This document shows, in pieces, positions 1,397 to 15,145 of a stretch of DNA of 15,145 bases. Made by a program: the position numbers and the translations under genes. This DNA is from a virus. Lineage: Duplodnaviria; Heunggongvirae; Uroviricota; Caudoviricetes. Each line of letters opens with the position of its first letter. Position 1 is the stretch's first letter. The notes below the pieces were generated by a model. The model was given only the letters and a program-made list of their open reading frames with translations. It was not told the origin of the DNA and ran no database searches. The stretch is taken from the IMG/VR virus record IMGVR_UViG_2617270941_000006; one strand, 5' to 3'.

Positions 1397-1446
1397 TTAG
1401 AAACCGATCACATACAGCTGCATTTATTAAGGTTATCATCCGTTTC
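1397..1446 (+). promoter_or_regulatory. Putative cyaR promoter: imperfect CRP half-site pair (TCACA at about 1408-1412, centred near -42) and a -10-like TATCAT at about 1434-1439
   Basis: Sequence ttagaaaccgatcacat upstream of the cyaR 5' end; the TCACA half-site is good and the upstream half is degenerate. CyaR is known to be cAMP-CRP activated with a class II type site. Positions are read by eye. Confidence 0.4.
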
Positions 1447-1533
1447 GCTGAAAAACATAACCCATAAAATGCTAGCTGTACCAGGAACCACCTCCTTAGC
1501 CTGTGTAATCTCCCTTACACGGGCTTATTTTTT
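1447..1533 (+). ncRNA. cyaR: CyaR (RyeE) Hfq-dependent small RNA
   Basis: The stretch gctgaaaaacataacccataaaatgctagctgtaccaggaaccacctccttagcctgtgtaatctcccttacacgggcttatttttt matches my recollection of E. coli CyaR. It ends in a stem-loop (cctgtgtaa / ttacacggg) followed by a U-run, and sits between yegQ and P2-derived genes as in E. coli K-12. Confidence 0.8.
1507..1533. other. P2-type attachment-site core (prophage/host junction), coinciding with the 3' terminator of cyaR
   Basis: aatctcccttacacgggcttatttttt is the reverse complement of the 27-nt P2 att core as I recall it (AAAAAATAAGCCCGTGTAAGGGAGATT). It lies about 100 nt from the ogr stop, the distance expected between ogr and attP in P2. 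The core sequence is from memory and not verified. Confidence 0.55.
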
Positions 1534-1597: not shown

Positions 1598-1631
1598 AAA
1601 AAAAGCCCCTCGACTGAGGGGCTTTCTGTTT
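1598..1631 (-). terminator. Rho-independent terminator downstream of ogr (structurally bidirectional)
   Basis: GC-rich hairpin gcccctc-gact-gaggggc flanked by a 7-A run on the plus side (7 U on the minus-strand transcript) and tttctgttt on the other side. It lies immediately 3' of the ogr stop at 1636-1638. Confidence 0.7.
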
Positions 1632-1635
1632 GTAA

Positions 1636-2043
1636 TTACATCCACATAATTTGCTGCCCTGACGGCAACGGGTGCGGCCTTACGGCGTGGACTTCTCCCG
1701 GCTTCACGATGTATCTCTGTACCGACTCATAGGTGATGAACGTGGCGCTGCAATTCACGTTCTGACACTGGTGATAACGCTCTTTTGTCGTGTCAGTGAT
1801 ATAGCGGCTTGTACGCGCATGTGCGGCATGCTGGCATACCGTGAGTGCACTGGTTTCGGGTTCATATTCAATCACCGCCCCGTCAGGGAAACGGATATGC
1901 AGGGCATCCTCCGACGCAGACGGCGCGGGGTTATCACCGGAATAAATCCCCGGCAGAACGAACGCCGTGTCGAGTTCACCGCCCACGGCCAGAATCAGCA
2001 CCTGCTCCCCCAGCCGGTCTTCAAAACGCTTAAACTCATTCAT
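1636..2043 (-). CDS. ogr: In-frame fusion ORF: N-terminal 69 aa of tail-completion protein S joined to Ogr residues 7-72 (late-gene activator lacking its first 6 residues including Cys4)
   Basis: ORF track 1636..2043 (135 aa). The C-terminal 66 aa (CQHAAHARTSRYITDTTKERYHQCQNVNCSATFITYESVQRYIVKPGEVHAVRPHPLPSGQQIMWM) match P2 Ogr from residue 7 on. The N-terminal MNEFKRFEDRL... starts 2 nt past the R stop, where gene S starts in P2. Junction at about 1836/1837. Confidence 0.7.
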   Translation of the reverse strand: MNEFKRFEDRLGEQVLILAVGGELDTAFVLPGIYSGDNPAPSASEDALHIRFPDGAVIEYEPETSALTVCQHAAHARTSRYITDTTKERYHQCQNVNCSATFITYESVQRYIVKPGEVHAVRPHPLPSGQQIMWM

Positions 2044-2503
2044 CCCACTTGCTCACCAGTTCGCCATTGATATAAAGCTCCATCGGGCGGGTGACCGGCT
2101 CCGGCGGCGGGGGTTCCGGGATATTCTTCACATGCAGCGCGCCGTCCACCTCACTGACCAGCGTGCGCTCGGTCAGCATCAGGCTGATGCTGATATCAAA
2201 GCTGCTGTCATTGTTGATGTCTGCATAAAACGTGAAGCCCTTTTTCTGGCCTGCGTCGGTGGTCATGATGTCGGGCTGATTCTCCCGCAGCCACGCCAGC
2301 ACCGGCACGATGAGCAGGTCAAAATCACCGGTAAAGTCGGTCACAATGACATTGAGCGTGTAACGCTTTTCGAATGACAGCGACGTCGCCAGTGTGGAGG
2401 CAATACTCCCGTTATCCACGAATATCCGCAGCATATCGGGGTTAGTTTTCAGTACCGTGACGGCATCAGTCAGCGCCCTGCGCAGGCTGTCGGGTTTGAG
2501 CAT
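2036..2503 (-). CDS. R: P2 gpR-like tail completion protein R (155 aa)
   Basis: ORF track 2036..2503. The protein MLKPDSLRRALTDAVTVLKTNPDMLRIFVDNGS... matches my recollection of P2 gpR, with the same length and position between lysB and S. Confidence 0.85.
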   Translation of the reverse strand: MLKPDSLRRALTDAVTVLKTNPDMLRIFVDNGSIASTLATSLSFEKRYTLNVIVTDFTGDFDLLIVPVLAWLRENQPDIMTTDAGQKKGFTFYADINNDSSFDISISLMLTERTLVSEVDGALHVKNIPEPPPPEPVTRPMELYINGELVSKWDE

Positions 2504-2756
2504 CGTTTTCGTCCTGACAGTGTTTAATCATTTTTACCTGGCTGGCACAGCGCGCCAGCGCGTTCTCAAGCTGCCGGATATCGGCACTTAAATCGCCGTT
2601 CGTCTGCGGGTCACTGCCCGGCATCGGGCAAAGGCTCACTTTCGGGCAGGCGTTGTGGACAATCACTGGCGTCGGTGCAGGCGGGGCGCTGGTGCAACCG
2701 GCGCACAGCATCAGGCAGGTCAGCGCCGTACCAGCGGCGAAAATCTTCGTTTTCAT
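2466..2756 (-). CDS. lysC: LysC-like o-spanin lipoprotein (Rz1 equivalent), embedded out of frame in lysB
   Basis: Internal Met at residue 40 of ORF 2466..2873 gives MKTKIFAAGTALTCLMLCAGCTS..., a signal peptide with lipobox (LCAGC) followed by a Pro-rich segment. It is nested in the +1 frame of the i-spanin gene, the typical Rz/Rz1 arrangement. 96 aa. Confidence 0.7.
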   Translation of the reverse strand: MKTKIFAAGTALTCLMLCAGCTSAPPAPTPVIVHNACPKVSLCPMPGSDPQTNGDLSADIRQLENALARCASQVKMIKHCQDENDAQTRQPAQGAD

Positions 2757-3036
2757 TGAGTAACCTCGTGATGGTTTTCTCGCGCTGTGCTTCACGCTTC
2801 GCGGCGTTCTCCAGTTCCTGACGCAGTGCCACCTGCGCCAGCTCGTTTTTGTCTGCCCTGGTGAGTGCAACATGAAGCTGGTTTTTCAGCATGGTGATGG
2901 TCGTCTGCTGCCCGCTGGCGACGTTGCTCGCCCTGTCCAGTGAGGTGCGCAGGCTGGCGTTTTCATGCTTCGCCAGAAACAGACCGGCCACCGCCAGTGA
3001 TAACAACACAACCAGCACAATCATCAGCTTTGACAT
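2611..3036 (-). CDS. lysB: LysB-like i-spanin (Rz equivalent), 141 aa
   Basis: ORF track 2611..3036. N-terminal transmembrane segment (MSKLMIVLVVLLSLAVAGLFLA) followed by a charged coiled-coil-like region. Length and position match P2 LysB. Confidence 0.85.
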   Translation of the reverse strand: MSKLMIVLVVLLSLAVAGLFLAKHENASLRTSLDRASNVASGQQTTITMLKNQLHVALTRADKNELAQVALRQELENAAKREAQREKTITRLLNENEDFRRWYGADLPDAVRRLHQRPACTDASDCPQRLPESEPLPDAGQ

Positions 3037-3449
3037 GGTTCCCGCACCTCAAAACGCTGACGGCAGGCCGTACGTATCAGCCGGAAGAACACCGATACCA
3101 CGAGATAAATCAGCGCGGTAAAAATCCACCCGGCAGCGACCAGCGAGATAAACGTCGCCACCATCACTACCAGAGCCACCGCCCGTCTGCGCCACGGCAC
3201 CGGCTGCAAAAACAGCGACGTGACAATCTTCACGGCCAGCGATTCCGGCGGCAGCTCCCGCCCGTAGCGTTCCAGTACATACTCTGTGGCATACACGCCG
3301 ACACCGCCGGCAACCACACAGATAACCGTCGCCAGAATCGCCCAGGCGGCGACAAAATTGACGGCCACGCTCTGCGGGTAAATCAGGGACAGTGCCAGCA
3401 TCAGCGCCAGCGACACGTTCAGCATCAGTGAAAGGGATAATTTCTTCAT
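3024..3449 (-). CDS. lysA: LysA-like membrane protein (lysis timing / holin-associated), 141 aa
   Basis: Starts at the internal ATG at residue 35 of ORF 3024..3551 (MKKLSLSLMLNVSLALMLALSLIYPQ...). The protein is highly hydrophobic with multiple transmembrane segments, and this start gives the P2 LysA length of 141 aa. The 3551 TTG start is treated as an artefactual extension. Confidence 0.75.
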   Translation of the reverse strand: MKKLSLSLMLNVSLALMLALSLIYPQSVAVNFVAAWAILATVICVVAGGVGVYATEYVLERYGRELPPESLAVKIVTSLFLQPVPWRRRAVALVVMVATFISLVAAGWIFTALIYLVVSVFFRLIRTACRQRFEVREPCQS

Positions 3450-3465
3450 GGTGTTTACTCCGTTT

Positions 3466-3561
3466 TGCGGCGAACACGGTCTCAACCACGCCCTCAGTGC
3501 GCCCGTAATACCGGACACAGATAGCGTCGAGCGTGTCGCCCTGTAGCGCAAAGGTCTTCAT
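3466..3561 (-). pseudogene. X: Truncated gpX (tail protein X) stub: first about 32 codons only, reading through out of frame into lysA
   Basis: ORF 3049..3630 contains MKTFALQGDTLDAICVRYYGRTEGVVETVFAA, matching the N-terminus of P2 gpX, starting at an ATG that overlaps the L stop (tcat at about 3558-3561). After about 32 residues the frame continues into lysA sequence in the wrong frame. The genes expected between X and lysA (Y holin, K endolysin) are absent. Confidence 0.6.
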
Positions 3562-4070
3562 CAGATTTGACTCACGATGCAGCGCGGCTTGTCCTGGATG
3601 CGCGCCACTGCCCAGCGCATATCCCGCCACAGCTCATCAATGGTGCTGTCAATGCTGTCGGCCTTCTTGTCGCCTTTCGCACTGGCATCCACGCCGCGAT
3701 AACGCTCATAAAGCGATGCGGTCGCCATCGCACACACGGCGCGCTCGTAGTAAAAAACTTTGATGCTTTCACCGTCGATGTCGTCCGCCGGGACGTCCGC
3801 CAGACGCGTAAAACCGGCAGCAATTTTCTGTTTGCGGTACTCGTACAGCTCCGCATTCGTCTCCGCCATGCCTGACTTGATGGCCTCACGCAGACGGGCG
3901 GGGGCGACGGTCTGCTCAAGGCGCATACGTTCCCGGACGCGCTTCGGGTCGATATCGGGAAAAAAGAACGTGTTTTTAATCACCGGCTCGTCGCCTGCCG
4001 GTTGCGGGATGACCACCGTACCCTCACCGGACACGGGAGCCTCCTTTCGCGGAATAATCAGCGTCATCAT
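3561..4070 (-). CDS. L: P2 gpL-like head completion/stabilisation protein (169 aa)
   Basis: Starts at Met 21 of ORF 3561..4130 (MMTLIIPRKEAPVSGEGTVVIPQPAGDEPVIKNTFFFPDIDPKRV...), which matches P2 gpL. There is a GAGG Shine-Dalgarno about 5 nt upstream and the length is 169 aa. Confidence 0.85.
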   Translation of the reverse strand: MMTLIIPRKEAPVSGEGTVVIPQPAGDEPVIKNTFFFPDIDPKRVRERMRLEQTVAPARLREAIKSGMAETNAELYEYRKQKIAAGFTRLADVPADDIDGESIKVFYYERAVCAMATASLYERYRGVDASAKGDKKADSIDSTIDELWRDMRWAVARIQDKPRCIVSQI

Positions 4071-4169
4071 GACTACCTCTGAAAAGTCGGGCGGTGGACG
4101 CCGGTACAGCGTCAGGTGATTCACCCTCACTGACCGGCGTGCCGCCCTGGCGCGGGGCGCATTCGGTTG

Positions 4170-4913
4170 TTAACTGGCTTTCTTTTTCGGGCGTCCACGT
4201 TTTGCCGGTGTCACGCTCCGGCTCTTACGCGGGGTACGGGTGGCCGCTTTGGGCTGCGGCTCCGGCTTCGGTTTCAGCTCCCGCTCCAGTCGTTCAATCT
4301 CTTTTTTGACACCTGCCTGACAGTCGAGCTGTGTCGCACGTTGCAGGTGAGCCAGCGCACCGGCGGCATCACCACCATCACGCAGAAACAGACCTGTGAT
4401 TTTGTGCAGCTTTGCGCGCACTTCATCAGGCATGTCAGCCGTGGCGGTCAGTTCAAGGGTCTCCGTCAGCAGGCGGGTATCCACAGACTCACCGGCAGCG
4501 TGAGCACGCATGGCCGCGAGCGCCACCTCCTCGGTGAACATGTACGGCGGGGTGCGGCGGTGTTTACCCGGCATGGTCAGACCGTACTTCAGGGCATAAC
4601 GGGCAATCTCCAGCGCACCGGCAATATCGCCGGTATCCAGACGCCACAGCATGACCGTCATCAGAATGTCATCCTGTGCACCTTTGCCCTGCTCCAGCAC
4701 GCCGTTCACCCACGGCAACCAGAACGGCAGCAGTTCGCGTTTTTTCGCGGCCTTCAGCTCTTTTGAATAAATCGCTTTCAGTGTGCGCTGGTCTGCGGCG
4801 AGCTTAACCAGCATCTGCTCATAGACAGTTGCATGTCGCAGCGGGGCGGCTTCCCGCTGCGCGGTCATCGCTGCCGAGACCCGCATCATGTGGCGCTGTG
4901 CGGGACTCGTCAT
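4170..4913 (-). CDS. M: P2 gpM-like terminase small (endonuclease) subunit, 247 aa
   Basis: ORF track 4170..4913. The sequence MTSPAQRHMMRVSAAMTAQREAAPLRHATVYEQMLVKLAADQRTLKAIYS... matches recalled P2 gpM, with a basic Lys/Arg/Pro-rich C-terminal tail. Length 247 aa as in P2. Confidence 0.9.
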   Translation of the reverse strand: MTSPAQRHMMRVSAAMTAQREAAPLRHATVYEQMLVKLAADQRTLKAIYSKELKAAKKRELLPFWLPWVNGVLEQGKGAQDDILMTVMLWRLDTGDIAGALEIARYALKYGLTMPGKHRRTPPYMFTEEVALAAMRAHAAGESVDTRLLTETLELTATADMPDEVRAKLHKITGLFLRDGGDAAGALAHLQRATQLDCQAGVKKEIERLERELKPKPEPQPKAATRTPRKSRSVTPAKRGRPKKKAS

Positions 4914-4916
4914 CGG

Positions 4917-5990
4917 TTACGCTCCCGGCTCTGCGGTCGCTTTAGCCAGTGTGGAGAAATCACCGACCTTAATTTTTTCCACCAGACAACCGGCGGCGTA
5001 GTCTTCCACCACGTAATCAATGTTCATTGACTCGTAGTTCTCCACGCGGTCGAGTTTCGGGTTTTCCTCAATCACGCGGCGATGGCTGTCATCCATGTAG
5101 TAGATGGACAGGTTTTCCAGCTTCGTGATGAGCATCGCATCCGCCGGGAAGTACGGGACGCGTACCGCTGGCAGGTTACCGATGCGTTTCTGGCTGATGA
5201 TGACGTCAGCGGCCAGCATTTCGCTGTTGTCCTGCTCCTTGTTAACGATGGGGAAATACTTGTCCGCCAGTAACTGACGTCCCACTATCACCACAAGGTC
5301 AGGGTCTTCCTGATACCACGGTTCGATCAGGTTGTTGGTCGCATCCATCACCAGTGCATCAAGGCTGGCATAATCACCGCCCTTACCCACACGGATGACC
5401 TCAGAGGTCGTGTGACCTTCCTCGTCAGTGACCTTGCTCATCACGCGCGCCGGTGCTTCATTGCGGTATTTCTGCAGCCAGCCGACCGCCACATCCTGCA
5501 ACATCGGATTACTGTTGCGGTCAGAGGTTTCGGCACGCTTCACGCCGTTAAAACCGGCCATGATGAAATCAAGGGACTGGCGTTTGATAATGGCGTTACG
5601 GATACGGAGCTGGAAATCCTGATAACGCGCCCACAGGTCAAGCGTTTTGTAGCGGATATAAAAATCGAAGTTAACCTGGTCGCATTCGTACTTGTTTGAC
5701 GCCAGCTTCGAGAAGTCCTTCGGCTGACGCTCGGTGCCACCGGCGGTGTCGGTGGTGCTGGCGATGGAGCCGGTGACACCGATACCAATTTTTTCCCCTT
5801 TCATTTCGCTGACCGGCACAATGTTGATGCGGGTCAGAAAGTCAGAGGACTCCTGCATGGTGTTCATCAGGGTCTGGGTGACCGACGGTTCAACGGTGAA
5901 TTTTTTCGACACATCACCGGCGTCGATGCCGTTCAGTTCGGCAACACGGGACAGGTAGGCATTAAATTTAAAGCGGGTTTCCTGGCGCAT
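4917..5990 (-). CDS. N: P2 gpN-like major capsid protein, 357 aa
   Basis: ORF track 4917..5990. MRQETRFKFNAYLSRVAELNGIDAGDVSKKFTVEPSVTQTLMNTMQESSDFLTRINIV... matches recalled P2 gpN. Length 357 aa as in P2, positioned between O and M. Confidence 0.9.
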   Translation of the reverse strand: MRQETRFKFNAYLSRVAELNGIDAGDVSKKFTVEPSVTQTLMNTMQESSDFLTRINIVPVSEMKGEKIGIGVTGSIASTTDTAGGTERQPKDFSKLASNKYECDQVNFDFYIRYKTLDLWARYQDFQLRIRNAIIKRQSLDFIMAGFNGVKRAETSDRNSNPMLQDVAVGWLQKYRNEAPARVMSKVTDEEGHTTSEVIRVGKGGDYASLDALVMDATNNLIEPWYQEDPDLVVIVGRQLLADKYFPIVNKEQDNSEMLAADVIISQKRIGNLPAVRVPYFPADAMLITKLENLSIYYMDDSHRRVIEENPKLDRVENYESMNIDYVVEDYAAGCLVEKIKVGDFSTLAKATAEPGA

Positions 5991-6048
5991 AGTTTTTCCT
6001 GAAATTAAGGGTTAATCGTGAAGGTTTTCCCGGACTGGCTGACGCCGG

Positions 6049-6903
6049 TCAGCAGTTCGTCATCAGGGCGTCACCGCCACCGCCGGTGGCCTTGCTGCGG
6101 CGCTGCTGGGTCAGACTTTCGGTGTGGTCGAGACTGTTTTTCAGGCGGGTGAATGCCTGGCTGGTTTCATCCGCCCTGTCTGTCACCTCCTGCTTAAGTG
6201 CGGAAAAGGCGGTTTCCATCTCAGCGAGGCGCTGCTCAGTGGCGCTCAGTTTTTCCTGCACATGTTCAGCAACAGCGGTCACCGCTTCATGCACGTCATT
6301 CAGACGGGCGTCATCGCTGGCCTGTTTGCGGCCAAAAATGGATTTCACCTTTTCGGTCAGGGCGGTGAACACGGTTTCAGGCAGGTCTTCAAATTCCAGC
6401 TCAACAGGCGTTGCCACTGAAATCAGGTTTTCAGGGCTTAATTTGAAGCGGTTCAGGGGGTTGTGTTTTGCCGTGCGGCAGAATTCCAGGTATTCCGTGC
6501 CGAGGCTTGCCGGGTCATCGGTGACGGCCAGACCCACCAGATAACATTTGCCGGTATTGGCAAAGTTCGGCTGAATTTCCATTGAGGTATAGACCTTCTG
6601 CGCGGCCTTGTTCATCGCGATAAGGTCATCGGTCGGGGTGATTTTCGCAAACAGCGCCCATTTGCCTTTCAGCGCCGAATCATCGTCAATCTTTTCGGCC
6701 TTCAGTTCGGCCACATCGCCATAACGCTTAAAAATACCGTCAGGCAGGATGCCGCGCAGATGTTCCAGGTTAATGCGGCAACCATAGACTCGCGGGTCAA
6801 AGGTTTCGGCCATTTCCTGAATATCCTGCGCACTGATGACACGCCCGTCACAGGTGTCACCCTCAACGCCGATACGAAAGAATTTTGAGACTTTTTTTGC
6901 CAT
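6049..6903 (-). CDS. O: P2 gpO-like capsid scaffolding protein, 284 aa
   Basis: Starts at Met 23 of ORF 6049..6969 (MAKKVSKFFRIGVEGDTCDGRVISAQDIQEMAETFDPRVYGCRINLEHLRG...), giving the P2 gpO length of 284 aa. The cat at 6901-6903 is the ATG on the minus strand. Confidence 0.9.
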   Translation of the reverse strand: MAKKVSKFFRIGVEGDTCDGRVISAQDIQEMAETFDPRVYGCRINLEHLRGILPDGIFKRYGDVAELKAEKIDDDSALKGKWALFAKITPTDDLIAMNKAAQKVYTSMEIQPNFANTGKCYLVGLAVTDDPASLGTEYLEFCRTAKHNPLNRFKLSPENLISVATPVELEFEDLPETVFTALTEKVKSIFGRKQASDDARLNDVHEAVTAVAEHVQEKLSATEQRLAEMETAFSALKQEVTDRADETSQAFTRLKNSLDHTESLTQQRRSKATGGGGDALMTNC

Positions 6904-7076
6904 TGTCAGGAGTCCTGAATAGTGATTAGAGGAGTCACATGTCGGCATCAGTTTCCCGACGATGCGCATCCTCCGCCATCAGTCCCGGATGGCTTATCAC
7001 TGACACAACAGCACCTTAGCGAATCGCGGGGCGCGACTCAGTAGCCTTGCCGTGTATTCATCACGGCGAGGTATTC
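6904..7076. promoter_or_regulatory. Divergent late-promoter region between O (leftward) and P (rightward), expected site of Ogr-dependent promoters
   Basis: A 173-nt intergenic region between divergent late operons, as in P2 where PO and PP are activated by Ogr. GAGG Shine-Dalgarno at about 7065-7068 before the P start. I could not find a perfect TGT-N12-ACA element, so exact promoter positions are not assigned. Confidence 0.4.
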
Positions 7077-8849
7077 ATGACCATCACCACAGACACCACT
7101 CTTTTACACGACCCGCGTCGTCAGGCGGCGCTGCTGTACTGGCAGGGATTTTCCGTGCCGCAGATTGCCGCCATGTTGCAGATGAAACGCCCGACGGTGC
7201 AGAGCTGGAAACAGCGCGACGGCTGGGACAGCGTTGCCCCCATCAGCCGTGTCGAAATGAGTCTGGAAGCGAGGCTGACCCAGCTCATCATCAAACCGCA
7301 GAAAACCGGCGGTGACTTCAAGGAAATTGACCTGCTCGGACGCCAGATTGAACGACTGGCACGGGTCAACCGTTACAGTCAGACCGGCAACGAGGCAGAC
7401 CTTAATCCGAACGTCGCTAACCGCAACAAGGGCGGGCGTCGCAAACCGAAAAAGAATTTTTTCAGTGACGAGGCCATCGAAAAGCTGGAGCAGATTTTCT
7501 TTGAGCAGTCTTTCGAATATCAGTTGCACTGGTATCGCGCCGGGCTTGAGCACCGCATCCGCGATATCCTGAAATCCCGCCAGATTGGCGCGACGTTTTA
7601 TTTTTCCCGCGAGGCGCTGCTGCGCGCCCTGAAAACCGGTCATAACCAGATTTTTCTGTCGGCCAGTAAAACGCAGGCGTATGTGTTCCGCGAATACATC
7701 ATCGCCTTTGCCCGGTTGGTTGACGTTGACCTGACCGGTGACCCAATTGTCCTGGGCAATAACGGCGCAAAACTGATTTTTCTCGGCACCAACTCCAACA
7801 CCGCGCAGAGCCATAACGGCGACCTGTACGTCGACGAGATTTTCTGGATCCCGAATTTTCAGGTGCTCCGTAAGGTGGCATCAGGTATGGCCTCACAGAG
7901 CCACCTGCGCTCGACCTATTTCTCCACCCCGTCCACGCTGGCGCACGACGCCTACCCGTTCTGGTCGGGTGAACTGTTCAACCGGGGACGCGCCAGCGCC
8001 GCCGAACGCGTGGAAATCGACGTCAGTCATAACGCCCTTGCCGGAGGTCTTCTCTGTGCGGACGGCCAGTGGCGGCAGATTGTCACCATTGAGGACGCCC
8101 TGAAAGGCGGCTGCACGCTGTTCGACATTGAGCAGCTCAAACGCGAAAACAGCGCCGACGATTTTAAAAACCTGTTCATGTGTGAATTTGTTGACGACAA
8201 GGCATCGGTGTTCCCGTTCGAGGAGCTGCAACGCTGCATGGTCGACACGCTGGAAGAATGGGAAGACTATGCGCCGTTTGCCGCCAATCCGTTCGGCTCC
8301 CGCCCGGTATGGATTGGTTACGACCCGTCACACCGTGGCGACAGCGCCGGATGCGTGGTGCTGGCACCGCCGGTGGTGGCCGGTGGAAAATTCAGAATAC
8401 TTGAGCGTCACCAGTGGAAAGGCATGGACTTTGCCACTCAGGCTGAATCCATCCGCAAACTCACCGAAAAATACAACGTCGAATACATCGGTATTGATGC
8501 CACCGGCCTCGGTGTCGGCGTGTTCCAGCTCGTGCGCTCGTTCTATCCCGCCGCGCGCGATATCCGCTACACACCGGAAATGAAAACTGCAATGGTGCTC
8601 AAGGCAAAAGACGTTATCCGCCGTGGCTGTCTGGAATATGACGTCAGCGCCACCGACATCACCAGCTCGTTCATGGCTATCCGCAAGACCATGACCAGCA
8701 GCGGACGCAGCGCCACGTATGAGGCCAGCCGCAGCGAGGAAGCCAGCCACGCCGACCTCGCCTGGGCGACCATGCATGCCCTGTTAAATGAGCCACTCAC
8801 CGCCGGTATCAGCACCCCGCTGACATCCACCATTCTGGAGTTTTACTGA
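7077..8849 (+). CDS. P: P2 gpP-like terminase large (ATPase) subunit, 590 aa
   Basis: Starts at Met 11 of ORF 7047..8849 (MTITTDTTLLHDPRRQAALLYWQGFSVPQIAAMLQMKRPTVQSWKQRDGWDS...), which matches recalled P2 gpP. The TTG at 7047 is treated as an extension. The stop overlaps the Q start (tgatga). Confidence 0.9.
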   Translation: MTITTDTTLLHDPRRQAALLYWQGFSVPQIAAMLQMKRPTVQSWKQRDGWDSVAPISRVEMSLEARLTQLIIKPQKTGGDFKEIDLLGRQIERLARVNRYSQTGNEADLNPNVANRNKGGRRKPKKNFFSDEAIEKLEQIFFEQSFEYQLHWYRAGLEHRIRDILKSRQIGATFYFSREALLRALKTGHNQIFLSASKTQAYVFREYIIAFARLVDVDLTGDPIVLGNNGAKLIFLGTNSNTAQSHNGDLYVDEIFWIPNFQVLRKVASGMASQSHLRSTYFSTPSTLAHDAYPFWSGELFNRGRASAAERVEIDVSHNALAGGLLCADGQWRQIVTIEDALKGGCTLFDIEQLKRENSADDFKNLFMCEFVDDKASVFPFEELQRCMVDTLEEWEDYAPFAANPFGSRPVWIGYDPSHRGDSAGCVVLAPPVVAGGKFRILERHQWKGMDFATQAESIRKLTEKYNVEYIGIDATGLGVGVFQLVRSFYPAARDIRYTPEMKTAMVLKAKDVIRRGCLEYDVSATDITSSFMAIRKTMTSSGRSATYEASRSEEASHADLAWATMHALLNEPLTAGISTPLTSTILEFY

Positions 8850-9467
8850 TGAGCAAGAAAAAAGGGAAAACACCGCAACCTGCGGCAAAAACAATCACCG
8901 CCAGCGCCCCGAAAATGGAGGCATTCACCTTTGGTGAGCCGGTGCCGGTACGGCCTGCCGGAATATCTCAGCGCCCTTAATTCTGCCTGGCTGAATGAGT
9001 CGGCCACGCTGTTCCGCCGCAAGTATTACGAAAACGGCGCTCATGCCGGATATATCATGTACGTCACCGATGCCGTGCAGGATCGCAACGATATCGAAAT
9101 GCTTCGCGAAAACATGGTCAAGTCGAAAGGCCGCAACAACTTTAAAAATCTGTTTCTCTATGCCCCGCAGGGGAAAGCCGACGGCATTAAAATTATCCCG
9201 CTCAGTGAAGTGGCAACGAAGGACGATTTTTTTAATATCAAAAAAGCCAGCGCCGCTGACCTGCTGGACGCACACCGCATCCCCTTTCAGTTGATGGGCG
9301 GCAAGCCGGAGAACGTCGGGTCACTGGGAGATATTGAGAAAGTGGCAAAGGTCTTTGTCCGCAATGAGCTTATCCCGTTACAGGACAGGATCCGCGAGAT
9401 AAACGGCTGGCTCGGTCAGGAGGTCATCCGCTTTAAAAACTACTCACTGGACACTGACAACGGCTGA
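8849..9467 (+). pseudogene. Q: Portal gene Q disrupted by an internal out-of-frame deletion (N-terminal 34 codons, then C-terminal about 172 codons in another frame)
   Basis: ATG at 8849-8851 overlapping the P stop gives MSKKKGKTPQPAAKTITASAPKMEAFTFGEPVPV, then RPAGISQRP and a stop at 8978-8980. The portal C-terminal sequence (YGLPEYLSALNSAWLNESATLFRRKYYENGAHAGYIMYV...DTDNG) is in ORF 8931..9467 in a different frame. The total span is about 206 codons against 344 aa for P2 Q. Junction near 8948-8951. Confidence 0.8.
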
Positions 9468-9472
9468 ACATC

Positions 9473-9494
9473 GCCGCCTGCGGGCGGCTTTTTT
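9473..9494 (+). terminator. Rho-independent terminator after Q
   Basis: Hairpin gccgcc-tgcg-ggcggc followed by tttttt, beginning 6 nt after the Q stop. Confidence 0.65.
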
Positions 9495-9636
9495 ACACCC
9501 CGTCATCACGCCCTCACACGCTCACCACCGCACAAAACACCCCGCAGACACACCAATGCCCCGGCTAACAATCTAAACGCCATCACGACGCGCTCAGACG
9601 CTGAAAAAATAAAATCAGCACCACCGCCAGCGCGCA

Positions 9637-9655
9637 GTGCTTTCCCCGCCTCGCC
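9637..9655. other. P2-type cos site (19-nt cohesive end sequence)
   Basis: gtgctttccccgcctcgcc is the reverse complement of the P2 cohesive end GGCGAGGCGGGGAAAGCAC as I recall it. It lies about 170 nt beyond the end of Q, as expected for the P2 genome end. Sequence from memory, not verified. Confidence 0.6.
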
Positions 9656-9772
9656 CGCCCGCTTAATGGGGCGGTTTTAATGCGGGTGCATAACCACTTC
9701 TTACCCACATCAATTCTGGTCAAGCCAAGCAGTACAGCTTATGATTTCAAGATGCAAACTCATGCAGCAATG

Positions 9773-10966
9773 TTAAATTCTGCATCCATCGGTTTGAAAA
9801 TGTGATCCGTTTTTCGAATTCAAACTCAACTCTGTTTGACTCTTTTGAACATTAATAGTTTTACCAGTAAGGACATCCAAAACCCCTGCAGCAACAGCCT
9901 GCGCCAATTTACAAGGCACAGCATTCCCTATCTGACGCCAAATTGACGAATTTTTCCCCACAAAGACATAATTACTCGGGAATGTTTGAATCAAAAGAGC
10001 CTCATCTATCGTTAGTCGACGTAAACGACTAGGTACATCGTGCATATCTTTTGGCTCACCACCATTCATTAGATGATTATGATAAGTCTCAACATAACTT
10101 GTTGAGCCATCATAAAGGTGTTCTTCATCAATAATTGGTGTCCTATTCCCTCCCATAGAAGCAGCTATAGTTGAAGCATACCCATTCGGGTTAATTGGTC
10201 TTCCCTGCCCGTTAAACATCATTCCCGCGTAAGGTGACTTCCGTAATACTGGCTTAGCAGCATTTGTAATCCTTGCATTACAGACTCTTGAATTGTTTGG
10301 ATTACCCGCTCGCCCTAAAGGCCGAATAATCTCACCAACTGTGGGCGAAAGATATTGGTATTTTTTTATCGCCGCCTCAACTCGTTTCACATCATTTTCG
10401 GAACGAAACCCTATAAAAAACATACGTTCCCTATTCTGAGGAACGCCAAAATCTTTAGAATTCAGCACCAGCAAGGCTGAACGATAGCCTGACTTTTCAG
10501 CCATCTTAAACAGTTCACACCTAACTGGTTCAAATTTGGACAACTGTGCTAAAGCCTTAACATTCTCCATAACAAAGCATTCTGGTTGAATTATATCCAC
10601 CGCCCGCATGAATGACATAACCAGCTTACTACGTGGATCATGAGCGTCCATTTTCCCTGCCACAGAAAATCCTTGGCATGGAGGCCCACCAAAAACACAA
10701 CCTATATTTTTCAGCCCAGACAATTCACTTAGCATCTCATCAATATCACCACAAAAAACAGGTGATTCATGATTAAGCTTAAATGTATCACATGCATCCT
10801 TATCTATATCATTGGCCCAAACTGTTCGGAACCCGGCATTAGAGAAACCGACATCCATCCCTCCTGCCCCAGTAAATAAGCTCACCGCTGAAATTTTGTT
10901 CACTTCTTTAGCACCAATTATTCGATTTTGGAATAAAACCAATGATAGGTAAGGATCGACACACAA
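9773..10966 (-). CDS. DNA (cytosine-5)-methyltransferase, Type II R-M modification subunit (397 aa with the TTG start)
   Basis: ORF track 9773..10966. Conserved m5C-MTase motifs in canonical order: LFTGAGGMDVGF (motif I, AdoMet binding), GGPPCQGFS (motif IV, catalytic Cys), ENV (motif VI), QNRERMFFIG (motif VIII), a variable target-recognition region, and RQIGNAVP (motif X). The TTG start has an AAGGTGA Shine-Dalgarno 4 nt upstream; GTG starts 21 or 27 codons in are alternatives. The region is AT-rich compared with the phage backbone. Confidence 0.85.
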   Translation of the reverse strand: MCVDPYLSLVLFQNRIIGAKEVNKISAVSLFTGAGGMDVGFSNAGFRTVWANDIDKDACDTFKLNHESPVFCGDIDEMLSELSGLKNIGCVFGGPPCQGFSVAGKMDAHDPRSKLVMSFMRAVDIIQPECFVMENVKALAQLSKFEPVRCELFKMAEKSGYRSALLVLNSKDFGVPQNRERMFFIGFRSENDVKRVEAAIKKYQYLSPTVGEIIRPLGRAGNPNNSRVCNARITNAAKPVLRKSPYAGMMFNGQGRPINPNGYASTIAASMGGNRTPIIDEEHLYDGSTSYVETYHNHLMNGGEPKDMHDVPSRLRRLTIDEALLIQTFPSNYVFVGKNSSIWRQIGNAVPCKLAQAVAAGVLDVLTGKTINVQKSQTELSLNSKNGSHFQTDGCRI

Positions 10967-10986
10967 TCAATCACCTTCTAAACCAC

Positions 10987-11256
10987 ATGGCAAAACGACA
11001 ACCAACTATACATGATCATAGATACAGGTGCCTAGTCCAGCTTCTCACCAAACTACGCAAAGAAGCTTCTCTTTCGCAGTCAGAATTGGCCATTTTTCTA
11101 GGATTATCACAATCAGATATATCTAAAATCGAAAGCTTTGAAAGGCGATTAGATGCTTTAGAACTATTTGAATTATTAGAGGTGGTTGCAAGCCGATTAG
11201 GTCTACCAATGGATATCTTACTAAAGGACACCTATGAAAGTATTAGTAAATCATGA
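10987..11256 (+). CDS. XRE-family helix-turn-helix regulator, putative R-M controller (C) protein, 89 aa (104 aa if it starts at the ATG at 10942)
   Basis: Internal Met 16 of ORF 10942..11256. HTH segment LRKEASLSQSELAIFLGLSQSDISKIESFERRLDALELFELLEVVASRLGLPMD follows the pattern of R-M controller proteins. It is divergent from the methyltransferase and its 3' end overlaps the start of the downstream ORF by 23 nt (C-R operon architecture). Start codon choice is uncertain. Confidence 0.65.
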   Translation: MAKRQPTIHDHRYRCLVQLLTKLRKEASLSQSELAIFLGLSQSDISKIESFERRLDALELFELLEVVASRLGLPMDILLKDTYESISKS

Positions 11257-12289
11257 GCAAGCCTATAATGTAATTATAAATGCAATCAACGATGCAAAAA
11301 AATTAACTGATTACAAAACAAATAATCAATGGGTCTCCATTCAAAATGTAATTTTAGGCACCCACCTTACATACAGATATATACTTATTACTGGTTTACT
11401 TGCAAAAGCAACAGACCCTAGAGTAAACCCTCTTGCTTTACAAGCTAATGCCCCCGTAGACGGAGCCTATGATGCAAGAAGTTTATGTCATTCGGTAATA
11501 GTAGGCAAAGTAGAAGGCCCATTTTTAGAGGGTAAGTTAGGCGCATCAAATGAGCCATTTCTAAATAAACCTGCTCGTTACATGCTCCACTCCTCTGATA
11601 ACCCTGTGCGCAGAGGAAATGATAAGGTTTTACAACAACTTTCAATTGATATATTACATGCAGCAACAACCCAAACCTTAGCTTATGAAATGCTTGTTAT
11701 TGCATTATATTTTACCCTACAGCGAACCAATAGAGTTATAACGCCGAACTCAATTAATTTTGATTTCCATAAGATTATTTATAATATTATATCTCATCCT
11801 TGTGATGGAGAAACATGCGCGATTGCTGCCGCAATTTCGTTACATTTATTAGGTGAACAAAGAGGATGGATAATAAAAGCACATCCCGTCAATCAGGCCG
11901 GTAGCTCCTCAAAAGAGATACTGGACATAGATGTATATCATGACGATATAGTTTTCCTTTCTATAGAAGTGAAAGACAAACCATTTAATTATCAAGATGT
12001 TAATCACGCCGTTTCAAAAGCATCTGCATCCGGGATTTCAAAAGTTATCTTCCTTAAAGGGCCAAGAGCAACAAACTTAGATATTGATGAGTCTCTTGCG
12101 ATTGAGAACGCTGCGACAAAAGGTGTTTCACTAAGCTTTAGTGACGTCATGACATTCACAACAACATGTTATGCGTTATCGCCACTATTAAGTAATGACA
12201 GAATAATAGATTTCATAAATAACACTTTAAAAGACATCAGAGCTAAAGATAGCACTATAGAATACATACAATCCATATTTAAAAATTAA
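11234..12289 (+). CDS. Putative Type II restriction endonuclease (351 aa), family unassigned
   Basis: ORF track 11234..12289. ATG preceded by AAAGGA Shine-Dalgarno at 11223-11228, translationally coupled to the HTH gene. Candidate PD-(D/E)xK-like motif around residues 231-247 (LDIDVYHDDIVFLSIEVK, about nt 11924-11974). Function is inferred from genomic context with the m5C-MTase and controller; the ORF itself is solid, the product call is tentative. Confidence 0.55.
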   Translation: MKVLVNHEQAYNVIINAINDAKKLTDYKTNNQWVSIQNVILGTHLTYRYILITGLLAKATDPRVNPLALQANAPVDGAYDARSLCHSVIVGKVEGPFLEGKLGASNEPFLNKPARYMLHSSDNPVRRGNDKVLQQLSIDILHAATTQTLAYEMLVIALYFTLQRTNRVITPNSINFDFHKIIYNIISHPCDGETCAIAAAISLHLLGEQRGWIIKAHPVNQAGSSSKEILDIDVYHDDIVFLSIEVKDKPFNYQDVNHAVSKASASGISKVIFLKGPRATNLDIDESLAIENAATKGVSLSFSDVMTFTTTCYALSPLLSNDRIIDFINNTLKDIRAKDSTIEYIQSIFKN

Positions 12290-12296
12290 TACTCCC

Positions 12297-12331
12297 GGGA
12301 CAATATAGTTCACAACTACGTTGTCCCTTTT
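12297..12331 (+). terminator. Putative rho-independent terminator after the endonuclease gene, in the convergent gap with gene A
   Basis: Inverted repeat gggacaa ... ttgtccc (17-nt loop) followed by tttt, 8 nt after the stop at 12287-12289. The stem is short and the loop long, so this is a weak call. Confidence 0.35.
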
Positions 12332-12382
12332 AAAACAGTCAAGCAATTGCATTATATTAATTATTTACTTTTTATCACAATC

Positions 12383-14653
12383 TCATAATTCATACGCTCT
12401 CCAATCACATATAACAGGATAACTGAAGCTTCTCCCGTCGTAATTTACAGTTGCCCCACGCGCCAGCGCCTCAAGCTCCCATCGCTGCGGCCTGATACCG
12501 TTCTGAGCAAGGTCAACGCGGATACGGGTGATTTGCAATCGTTCAGACCTGGTCAGTCTGGCCGATGGTGCTATTTCATGCGGTTTTAACGGGCTTCCGT
12601 TTCTTTGCTGACGGTTTGGTGTTATCAGGTCGTGTTTTAATGCGCCCCTGAGCGCCCTCACGACCTCCGGGTCATTCCATTCGATAACACCGTCATCAAC
12701 CAGATTAAGCACTGCTGCGGCGTGTTCAGAAGGTGTGGGAGCCGGTAACGAAGTATCACCACTGGTGAGCTTTCCACAGTTATTGACAGGACTCCGAGGC
12801 GCGGCGATGCCGCTTTTTAAAGTCAAAGGCTCAACGACCGGAACTTTCGGCACAATGCGCCAGTCCGTCGTTCTGGTGATATGAATATGACGCGCGCCGA
12901 GATGCGGCGCGTAAATGCCGACCACTCTCTCGACTTCTTCCTCGTACTCGTTAACGTCATCCGACGGGCTACGGGCGACCCTGACAGTCTGACAATCGCG
13001 CGGGACATTTGCCCCGCCCTGCGCGCTGATATACAACGCAAAATCACCACTGTCTGCGGCGGCGCGTGCAGCCTCGACGCGTTCGTCAAACTCATCAGCA
13101 ATGCTGACGCCGCGAGGCAATTTGCGTAGCTCACGGTAAGCCCCCATTGTCGGCAGGCCAACCGTTTTAAATTGCGGAATGCGCCACGTTGACGCCCATG
13201 CGGTAACAGCCGCGGCAGTATCTTTCAGCGGCCTGCCAGTATCGTTATCGAGCTGACCATCCAGTGCATAGCCGTCGATGTTTTTTGAAATGTATTTCGC
13301 GATATATCCCGCAGCACCGCCCCGGTTAAGGTGTTTTGCCTGAAAACGGTTTCGCGCAGCTCCTCTTTCGTCTCCATCCTCTTTGAGCGCGTAGCGACGC
13401 ATGATTTCGATAATCTGGTTACGCTGGCGTGGATTACAAAAAAGCATCATATGCCAGTGCGGCGTTCCGTCGTGGTGTGGCTCGACGACACGCAAACCGT
13501 AGACCTGTAAATCATTATCCTTGAATGCCGTGCGCATCAGGCTCCAGATATGGCAGAGATAACGCTGCGCATCCTTTGGATTAAATGCCTCATCATTCCA
13601 GCCGTGATTTAGCTGGACGGTTTTACTTTCGCCTTTTCCGACCTGACGTGTCGGGTGATACTTTGACGGCGCGGTCAGCGTGATAAACATCCCCACATCA
13701 CCCTCTGCGGCGGCATAACGCTCAATTCCGGCGATGGTGTTCATCAGCTCCATCCGGCGAATTTCAGGATTAGAAATACTGCCCATCACCTTACTGATAA
13801 GGTCGATGCGCTCGCCGGTTTCCCTGTTTTCAAGGTCACACGATTTAAGAAATTCCAGATTTGCCTGGCGGCGTGCACGCACATCACGAATGGCATGTTT
13901 ACTGGCATAAGGAGAACGGTCTTTATTGACCTCCCCGACAGCAATCAGTAACGCCTCATGCCAGCGCATACGCTGGCCTTTAAGCTGATGAGTCCACCAC
14001 TCATCGTTAAACAGACGGGCAATGGCAGAATATGCCTGCCTCGTAGTTATCTGTCCTTTACGGTATTTTTTCCAGTAGAGCGGGGAAATATTGAAAGCAC
14101 GTGCAGCGCCAGCAACATGACCATACAGGTGAGTCTGCGCCTCATCCGTAAACAGCGATTCTTTTTCGCCATGTGCATCAACCCATGCATCGCAGAGTTC
14201 CTCATACATCATGAAAAGCTGCGATGAGATACGGGCGGCAAACTTTTTCAGCTCCTTGTCATTCATCCCCGGCAGGCGCGCATAGTGGTCACGCTCTGCC
14301 AGAAACAGTAACGACTCGTCGGTGTTCATTTCATGGCGCTGATTCACGCGCTCAATGCGCGGCCATAAACGACGCTGAAAAGTGGATGTGAGGAAATAAA
14401 ACCCGTGCACCGGGCTTTTATTGCGCCGGATGTAGTCATAGCGTGAAGTAAACAGCGAGCGCAAAAAGTAAGGCAGGCGGTTAATCGTGGATAAAACACC
14501 TTGCACCTGACGCATCTCGTCACGTGTAAGGGGTCTTTCGCGCCCGACAGCCTCGCGTGGCGCGTTCCATGCATAAGCACCGGTAAACGCCTTACCGGTG
14601 CCTGCGGCAAATGCTGACGGAGGGACAAAACGCCCGGAGGCTTTAACGGCCAT
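12383..14653 (-). CDS. A: P2 gpA-like rolling-circle replication initiator (HUH endonuclease), 756 aa
   Basis: Starts at Met 15 of ORF 12383..14695 (MAVKASGRFVPPSAFAAGTGK...), the P2 gpA N-terminus as I recall it. HUH metal-binding motif (GTPHWHMMLF) and active-site tyrosine motif (GYIAKYISKN). The upstream gene stops at 14643, consistent with this start. The extreme C-terminus is AT-rich and may be chimeric. Confidence 0.9.
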   Translation of the reverse strand: MAVKASGRFVPPSAFAAGTGKAFTGAYAWNAPREAVGRERPLTRDEMRQVQGVLSTINRLPYFLRSLFTSRYDYIRRNKSPVHGFYFLTSTFQRRLWPRIERVNQRHEMNTDESLLFLAERDHYARLPGMNDKELKKFAARISSQLFMMYEELCDAWVDAHGEKESLFTDEAQTHLYGHVAGAARAFNISPLYWKKYRKGQITTRQAYSAIARLFNDEWWTHQLKGQRMRWHEALLIAVGEVNKDRSPYASKHAIRDVRARRQANLEFLKSCDLENRETGERIDLISKVMGSISNPEIRRMELMNTIAGIERYAAAEGDVGMFITLTAPSKYHPTRQVGKGESKTVQLNHGWNDEAFNPKDAQRYLCHIWSLMRTAFKDNDLQVYGLRVVEPHHDGTPHWHMMLFCNPRQRNQIIEIMRRYALKEDGDERGAARNRFQAKHLNRGGAAGYIAKYISKNIDGYALDGQLDNDTGRPLKDTAAAVTAWASTWRIPQFKTVGLPTMGAYRELRKLPRGVSIADEFDERVEAARAAADSGDFALYISAQGGANVPRDCQTVRVARSPSDDVNEYEEEVERVVGIYAPHLGARHIHITRTTDWRIVPKVPVVEPLTLKSGIAAPRSPVNNCGKLTSGDTSLPAPTPSEHAAAVLNLVDDGVIEWNDPEVVRALRGALKHDLITPNRQQRNGSPLKPHEIAPSARLTRSERLQITRIRVDLAQNGIRPQRWELEALARGATVNYDGRSFSYPVICDWRAYEL

Positions 14654-14918
14654 ATGAGCCAAAAGCCTCTGAACAACGCTTGCTGAGTTGCTCAACCTGC
14701 GCGTTTAAATCAGCAAAAGACTTTGCGCTTCCGGTCAGAATATCGTGATGCATCAGGCCGGAAACGAGCTGGCTTAATTTCGGGTAATAACCAACCACCG
14801 CCAGCCATTCCTGACCGGCGTTTTTACCGCTTTCCGCTCTCTTTTTCTCGTGGAGAATAAACTGAAAGCTGTCACTGGTAACGACATAACGTTCGCCAAT
14901 TTCGATACGAATACTCAT
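14643..14918 (-). CDS. P2 early-operon small protein immediately upstream of A (orf83-position homologue), 91 aa, function unknown
   Basis: ORF track 14643..14918. The ATG overlaps the stop of the upstream zinc-finger ORF (tcat at 14915-14918). It sits where the P2 early operon has small ORFs between B and A. The name is by position only. Confidence 0.55.
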   Translation of the reverse strand: MSIRIEIGERYVVTSDSFQFILHEKKRAESGKNAGQEWLAVVGYYPKLSQLVSGLMHHDILTGSAKSFADLNAQVEQLSKRCSEAFGSYGR

Positions 14919-15139
14919 GCCATTCTCCGGTAATGTTTGTTTTTTGCTTCAAAGACTGACTGACAGGAAACACAACGCGTGGCTGACGGATAAGCCGCAC
15001 GACGGGCAGCAGGTATTGGCGCGTCACACTCTTCGCAAACCAGCGCAGAAGCACCGCAATGTTTTACCCTTGCCGCGTTAATCTGGCGCTCCAGTAATTC
15101 AGCCTGTTGTTCCTGAATAAAATCTACGTTGTCCGGCAT
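14915..15139 (-). CDS. TraR/DksA-family C4 zinc-finger protein (P2 early-operon small ORF, orf82-like), 74 aa
   Basis: ORF track 14915..15139 with ATG at 15137-15139. Four cysteines in two CxxC pairs (HCGASALVCEECDAPIPAARRAAYPSATRCVSCQ), typical of phage TraR/DksA-like zinc fingers. Confidence 0.65.
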   Translation of the reverse strand: MPDNVDFIQEQQAELLERQINAARVKHCGASALVCEECDAPIPAARRAAYPSATRCVSCQSVFEAKNKHYRRMA

Positions 15140-15145
15140 TACCAG

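Follow-up and report, generated by a model that had tools for sequence, protein, structure and literature searches.

Identity and setting of a restriction endonuclease gene in the cos-proximal defence hotspot of a defective P2 prophage

The window analysed here is a stretch of 15,145 nt from a Caudoviricetes record (IMG/VR IMGVR_UViG_2617270941_000006). It carries at 11234–12289, on the plus strand, an open reading frame (ORF) of 351 amino acids, whose neighbours are a DNA methyltransferase gene and a gene for a small helix-turn-helix (HTH) protein. Does this ORF encode a restriction endonuclease and, if so, is the enzyme a new one? A preliminary description had called it a putative restriction endonuclease with no recognisable family, and a candidate for a novel enzyme or specificity. 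The ORF, listed and translated, is real, and it has the coordinates, strand and start that were reported for it. The gene signals named in the same description are also present in the sequence: an AAAGGA Shine-Dalgarno element at 11223–11228, which 5 nt separate from the ATG at 11234, and a 23-nt overlap with the HTH ORF, whose TGA stop codon lies at 11254–11256. Since the protein has 1419 homologues in a large protein database at E ≤ 1e-3, and its exact 351-aa sequence occurs on about 986 public contigs, some of them from Salmonella enterica, the ORF is far beyond chance.

The family of the protein was found by profile search. Pfam model PF09566 (RE_SacI) matches it end to end, over model positions 4–276 of 276 (E = 1.9e-76, 258 bits), and this full-length match, far above the gathering score of 19.3, makes it a member of the family of R.SacI. 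All 120 homologues among the matches listed carry PF09566 as well, and the RefSeq label for the gene is “restriction endonuclease, SacI family”. A PDB sequence search with the 351-aa protein gave one match, “EcoT38I restriction endonuclease” (7E8R and 7EDB, both 2022 releases; E = 4e-234). In the printed alignment with chains 7e8r_A and 7edb, 351 of 351 residues are the same, and no residue difference from the deposited protein was seen over these positions. Foldseek likewise returned 100% identity to 7edb_A; 7EDB is entitled “EcoT38I restriction endonuclease complexed with DNA”, and 7E8R is the free (apo) enzyme. The nuclease of the window thus shows no detectable difference from R.EcoT38I (7E8R, 7EDB; Kita, Kawakami & Tanaka 2003, J Bacteriol 185:2296).

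What had been put forward as a candidate for a novel enzyme is therefore EcoT38I, which has been crystallised as well as cloned and characterised. One could still argue for a novel restriction enzyme of uncharacterised family or specificity from the difficulty of placing the family by eye and from the NCBIfam profile search, which found no model for the 351-aa nuclease. This missing NCBIfam model is the sole sense in which the nuclease family is “unrecognised”, and we give the novel-enzyme reading practically no credence, against identity at every residue to a named and crystallised enzyme, the RE_SacI match, and the presence of the exact sequence on public contigs with SacI-family annotation. 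Because the sequences are identical, the specificity of the nuclease is that of EcoT38I. We conclude that the ORF is almost certainly R.EcoT38I, a Type IIP enzyme of the SacI family that supplies the nuclease of a Type II restriction-modification (R-M) cassette of three genes; no evidence contradicting this identification was found. The label “no recognisable family” reflects a limit of reading by eye, and one profile or PDB sequence search settles the identity.

The preliminary description had pointed to a PD-(D/E)xK-like arrangement as the only candidate for a catalytic centre and had proposed profile searches and structure prediction for it; these gave the PF09566 match and a PD-(D/E)xK fold. 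The motif that it quoted, LDIDVYHDDIVFLSIEVK, is present, at residues 230–247 instead of the 231–247 given there, an offset of one. The numbering of D233, E245 and K247 is correct both in the translation and in the PDB alignment. In an alignment of 48 homologues (38–79% identity), E193, D231, D233, E245, K247, D248 and K249 are invariant in 48 of 48. Residues 278–351, about 75 residues beyond the end of the Pfam model, are also conserved among the aligned homologues.

An AlphaFold2 model built from the 48-homologue alignment (mean pLDDT 91.9) has a helical N-terminal half and divides R.EcoT38I into an N-terminal helical domain (about residues 1–190) and a C-terminal PD-(D/E)xK nuclease domain (about residues 190–351), which holds E193, D233, E245 and K247. 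The latter is predicted to contain an alpha-beta-beta-beta-alpha-beta unit, made of a helix at 193–210, strands at 212–216, 232–236 and 239–247, a helix at 253–265 and a strand at 270–275. D233 falls on the second strand (232–236) and E245-x-K247 on the adjacent third strand (239–247), the canonical PD-(D/E)xK placement, so that the predicted structure has both the core fold of the superfamily and its signature, an acidic residue on strand 2 and (D/E)xK on strand 3. After EcoT38I itself, the nearest folds to the C-terminal domain are the PD-(D/E)xK nucleases BspD6I, FokI, NgoMIV and HindIII. The catalytic centre proposed earlier thus has invariant residues and a nuclease fold around it, and catalytic roles for D233, E245 and K247 are supported by conservation together with the predicted fold. 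The SacI family had already been assigned to the PD-(D/E)XK superfamily via sequence analysis (PMC2441816; PMC3424549). A literature search for a paper describing 7E8R or 7EDB, or mutagenesis of the motif, found only methods papers that use these structures as a test case.

Agreement of the model is closest with the DNA-bound chain 7EDB_A (TM 0.84) and poorer with the apo form (TM 0.54), and this difference suggests a hinge between the two domains of R.EcoT38I. In a CCP4 paper with 7E8R as a test case, the model was aligned to 7E8R as two split domains.

The role of the protein had first been inferred from context only, and the same context could be read without a nuclease: the methyltransferase, HTH protein and ORF might form a different kind of system that includes a methyltransferase, for example a regulatory module or one resembling a toxin-antitoxin pair. 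The preliminary description had itself kept this alternative in view. It is excluded by the C-terminal PD-(D/E)xK fold with its invariant E...D...ExK signature and by the deposited protein-DNA complex, which is named a restriction endonuclease, and the family is named after the restriction enzyme SacI; its probability is negligible. The role as R.EcoT38I, in a set of methyltransferase, controller protein and restriction endonuclease, is the one that has been borne out.

A partner methyltransferase lies beside the nuclease gene, as is expected for a SacI-family enzyme. This C5-cytosine (m5C) DNA methyltransferase, M.EcoT38I, is encoded on the opposite (minus) strand at 9773–10903 and matches PF00145 (E = 1.4e-66) and TIGR00675; its closest solved relatives are M.HaeIII and M.HhaI. 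The mechanically called ORF reaches a TTG at 10966. In the printed alignment, the ATG of the Yersinia aldovae homologue is aligned with the GTG at 10903 and has an in-frame TAA just upstream. The most likely start is thus GTG 10903, which would give a protein of 376 aa. With this start, 330 nt separate the M and R genes, which is reportedly also the figure in the abstract of the 2003 description of the system.

The methyltransferase gene differs somewhat between strains. In the window it is 13 codons longer than in the intact EcoT38I prophage of E. coli NCTC10973 (9773–9811 in the window against 9874–9912 in locus L001), having a lysine codon (AAA) in place of the TAA of NCTC10973. The gene is annotated as two pieces in strain FORC_082.

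Upstream of the nuclease gene and on the same strand, as in other R-M systems under C-protein control, is the small HTH gene at 10987–11256 (plus strand), which matches Pfam HTH_3 and encodes C.EcoT38I. The mechanical ORF begins at 10942 and encodes 104 aa, of which residues 21–104 are identical to the 84-residue PDB chain 2EF8. This ORF is probably over-extended. Coding in 10942–10986 is disfavoured because a 13-nt indel falls within it relative to a homologous cassette, and PGAP places the start at the equivalent of ATG 10987, from which a protein of 89 aa would be made. The choice between 10942 and 10987 has no effect on the 23-nt overlap with the nuclease gene. C.EcoT38I is among the known controller proteins listed in PMC2632904.

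With GTG 10903 and ATG 10987 as starts, the divergent M and C genes are separated by 83 nt. This region contains an inverted repeat, TTATTC-N7-GAATAA, at 10918–10936 (no strand assigned). In an alignment of three cassettes it is the most conserved element of the M-C control region: the 17-nt run 10919–10935 is invariant, and the nucleases of the same cassettes share only 60–74% identity. We infer that the repeat is a candidate C-box, or operator. The main text of Sorokin et al. does not give a C-box motif for C.EcoT38I.

The other two cassettes of this alignment have the same M-C-R layout and come from Enterobacter ludwigii (nuclease 74% identical) and Y. aldovae (60% identical). The E. ludwigii and Y. 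aldovae cassettes are at 4556–7056 of L004 and 4575–7053 of L005/L006. The former has no phage surroundings and adjoins a PIN-domain gene; the latter has host genes on one side and the ogr end of a P2-like prophage on the other. Since the same layout is found outside the site that it occupies in the window, the cassette moves as a unit and is not bound to one insertion point.

That site was mapped by blastn of the window against P2 (NC_001895). The prophage part of the window maps to P2 except for 9684–12413 (no strand assigned): P2 homology ends at 9683 and begins again at 12414, and between them is a foreign cassette of 2.73 kb. Its base composition is also distinct, with 36–47% G+C between about 9500 and 12500 and 52–61% in the flanks. 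The cassette stands in place of P2 30274–33546, that is, the last 46 nt of gene A together with orf91, tin and old. On its left, 28 nt away, is the 19-nt cohesive-end sequence cos of P2 (9637–9655, no strand assigned), which aligns to P2 1–19 (cosL) and 33575–33593 (cosR). The right flank is the P2 replication gene A, which encodes a nicking endonuclease (12383–14653, minus strand; Phage_GPA, E = 2e-124; 97% identity to P2). The left flank is the portal gene Q (8849–9467, plus strand), which a 416-nt internal deletion disrupts and of which only the C-terminal half matches portal models. The cos-proximal gpA-gpQ site of P2-like phages has been described as a hotspot for anti-phage cargo (PMC9122126), and the EcoT38I cassette occupies this known defence hotspot. 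The M, C and R genes thus have genes A and Q of a defective P2 prophage on either side, which is the location of EcoT38I and agrees with the title of Kita et al. 2003.

Host DNA makes up the left end of the window, with a U32-peptidase gene at 1–1362. From the K-12 map we take this gene to be yegQ. Just after it is the small RNA CyaR/RyeE (1445–1530, plus strand; Rfam RF00112, 100.7 bits), and because its 3′ end overlaps the P2 att/ogr homology, which begins at 1507, the prophage is integrated at the 3′ end of cyaR. The intact EcoT38I prophage of NCTC10973 adjoins pflA.

Twenty of 5426 complete E. coli genomes carry at least 80% of the 3051-nt query used, and the ones listed do so at 99.2–99.6% identity. 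Among the complete E. coli genomes of the collection, none has the same deleted prophage next to yegQ; the best loci cover 1834–15145 in 4–5 pieces and come from intact prophages. The cassette was found in none of the deposited phage genomes, where matches were limited to the P2 flanks.

Deletions in the prophage were called against P2 and the intact NCTC10973 prophage. The largest removes P2 10674–24051, with part of V, then W, J, I, H, G, fun(Z), FI, FII, E, T, U, D and the start of ogr. Also missing are P2 8948–10494, at about 2011 of the window (S, orf30 and the start of V), P2 6607–7492, at about 3464 (part of X, the holin and the endolysin), and P2 707–1118, inside the portal gene Q. The prophage is unable to form particles or to lyse the cell.

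Two of the junctions can be described more closely. Three of the deletions lie at 1834–3465 of the window, and the largest of these has joined ogr to an inner portion of gene V, with the loss of all tail, fibre and fun(Z) genes. Compared with L001, the deletion in Q is 416 nt long, breaks the frame and removes the N-terminal part of the gene, with a 4-nt overlap at the junction (8948–8951).

In so decayed a setting, where the prophage has lost its lysis genes, every tail gene and a portion of the portal gene, the R gene could be an intact but silent relic. We consider this very unlikely. None of the three cassette ORFs is truncated, R has the exact sequence of the crystallised active enzyme, and homologous cassettes share a conserved M-C control region. 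Restriction activity was reportedly expressed by TH38 strains whose prophages are defective. Moreover, an intact R with an inactive M would be lethal, and for this reason the R-M pair is under selection as a unit. We therefore keep to R.EcoT38I as the nuclease of a cassette that is intact in all three of its genes.

How such a unit would work can be proposed from its layout. The divergently encoded m5C methyltransferase M.EcoT38I protects the host’s own sites, reportedly by methylating the inner cytosine of the recognition sequence. Since the C gene overlaps the R gene by 23 nt, C and R must be co-transcribed and are probably translationally coupled, and this coupling may delay expression of the nuclease until methylation is established. 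C.EcoT38I reportedly activates R and represses M, so that on entry into a new cell synthesis of the nuclease is delayed. Cleavage would be performed by the C-terminal PD-(D/E)xK domain, with D233, E245 and K247 as predicted metal-binding and catalytic residues, probably joined by E193 from the preceding helix. As prophage cargo, the cassette would defend the lysogen against unmethylated incoming DNA.

The recognition site bears on the relationship with SacI. R.EcoT38I is reportedly a homodimer that cuts G(A/G)GC(C/T)^C (GRGCY^C). A literature search for GRGCYC found nothing tying that sequence to EcoT38I. GRGCYC covers four sequences, among them the SacI site, GAGCT^C, and its inclusion in the degenerate site of EcoT38I fits a SacI-family relationship. 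With R tolerated at position 2 and Y at position 5, a property shared with BanII and HgiJII, EcoT38I would be a relative of SacI with relaxed specificity and not an isoschizomer of it.

Does the prophage avoid this site? GRGCYC, the reported EcoT38I site, was counted in prophage DNA (1600–15145 of the window and L001 1–18361), in P2 and in a cdt-carrying P2-like phage. The window has one occurrence, GAGCTC at 1294 in the host gene, and the prophage DNA has 0 against 8–16 expected. P2 itself has 0 against 14–26 expected, and the cdt-carrying phage has 0 against 15–37. Many other 6-bp palindromes show the same degree of depletion here (CGGCCG 0 of about 23 expected, GGCGCC 0 of about 15, CCGCGG 0 of about 18 and CAGCTG 1 of about 22). 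The P2 backbone is broadly palindrome-poor. Being palindrome-poor and GRGCYC-free, it is immune to the EcoT38I nuclease as a by-product.

Avoidance of GRGCYC as a signature of EcoT38I carriage was rejected, as P2 and the cdt-carrying phage, both without the cassette, also have zero sites and as many further 6-bp palindromes are just as scarce, which points to a general avoidance of palindromes by the P2 backbone. We see only a small chance that the cassette acted as an addiction module, keeping the A-cos-Q segment while the prophage decayed, and that P2-like phages and GRGCYC-specific systems have had a long association; the zero count of GRGCYC could equally be one case of a general avoidance of palindromes in P2.

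The window can be set beside known systems of the same kind. Its neighbours are those of the EcoT38I system, an m5C methyltransferase and a C gene that overlaps R. The cassette resembles the old/tin cargo of P2 (Rousset et al. 2022, PMC9122126) in occupying the same slot by cos between A and Q and in being low in G+C, non-essential and anti-phage; the mechanisms differ, Old being an exonuclease/ATPase, Tin an exclusion protein and EcoT38I a Type II R-M system. The EcoO109I R-M system with C.EcoO109I is on a P4-like element (Kita et al. 1999, cited in PMC9122126). EcoO109I is also a C-controlled Type II R-M system and cos-adjacent cargo of an E. coli P2/P4-family element; it differs in nuclease family and site, and its carrier is the satellite P4, whereas that of EcoT38I is the helper P2.

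Cargo of another kind was seen in the same slot of the P2-like phage NC_041848 (L002 6058–8200; E. coli O157:H43), which has the cdtABC toxin genes between A and Q. The A-Q hotspot therefore also takes virulence cargo.

R.EcoT38I, its C protein, its family and fold and its location in a P2 prophage are all already on record, and the window has little discovery value in these respects. It is well suited as a textbook illustration of a Type II R-M system carried as cargo in the cos-proximal hotspot for defence genes of a P2-like prophage. With a backbone free of GRGCYC, a P2-like phage could carry EcoT38I, or meet the nuclease in a new host, without risk to itself.
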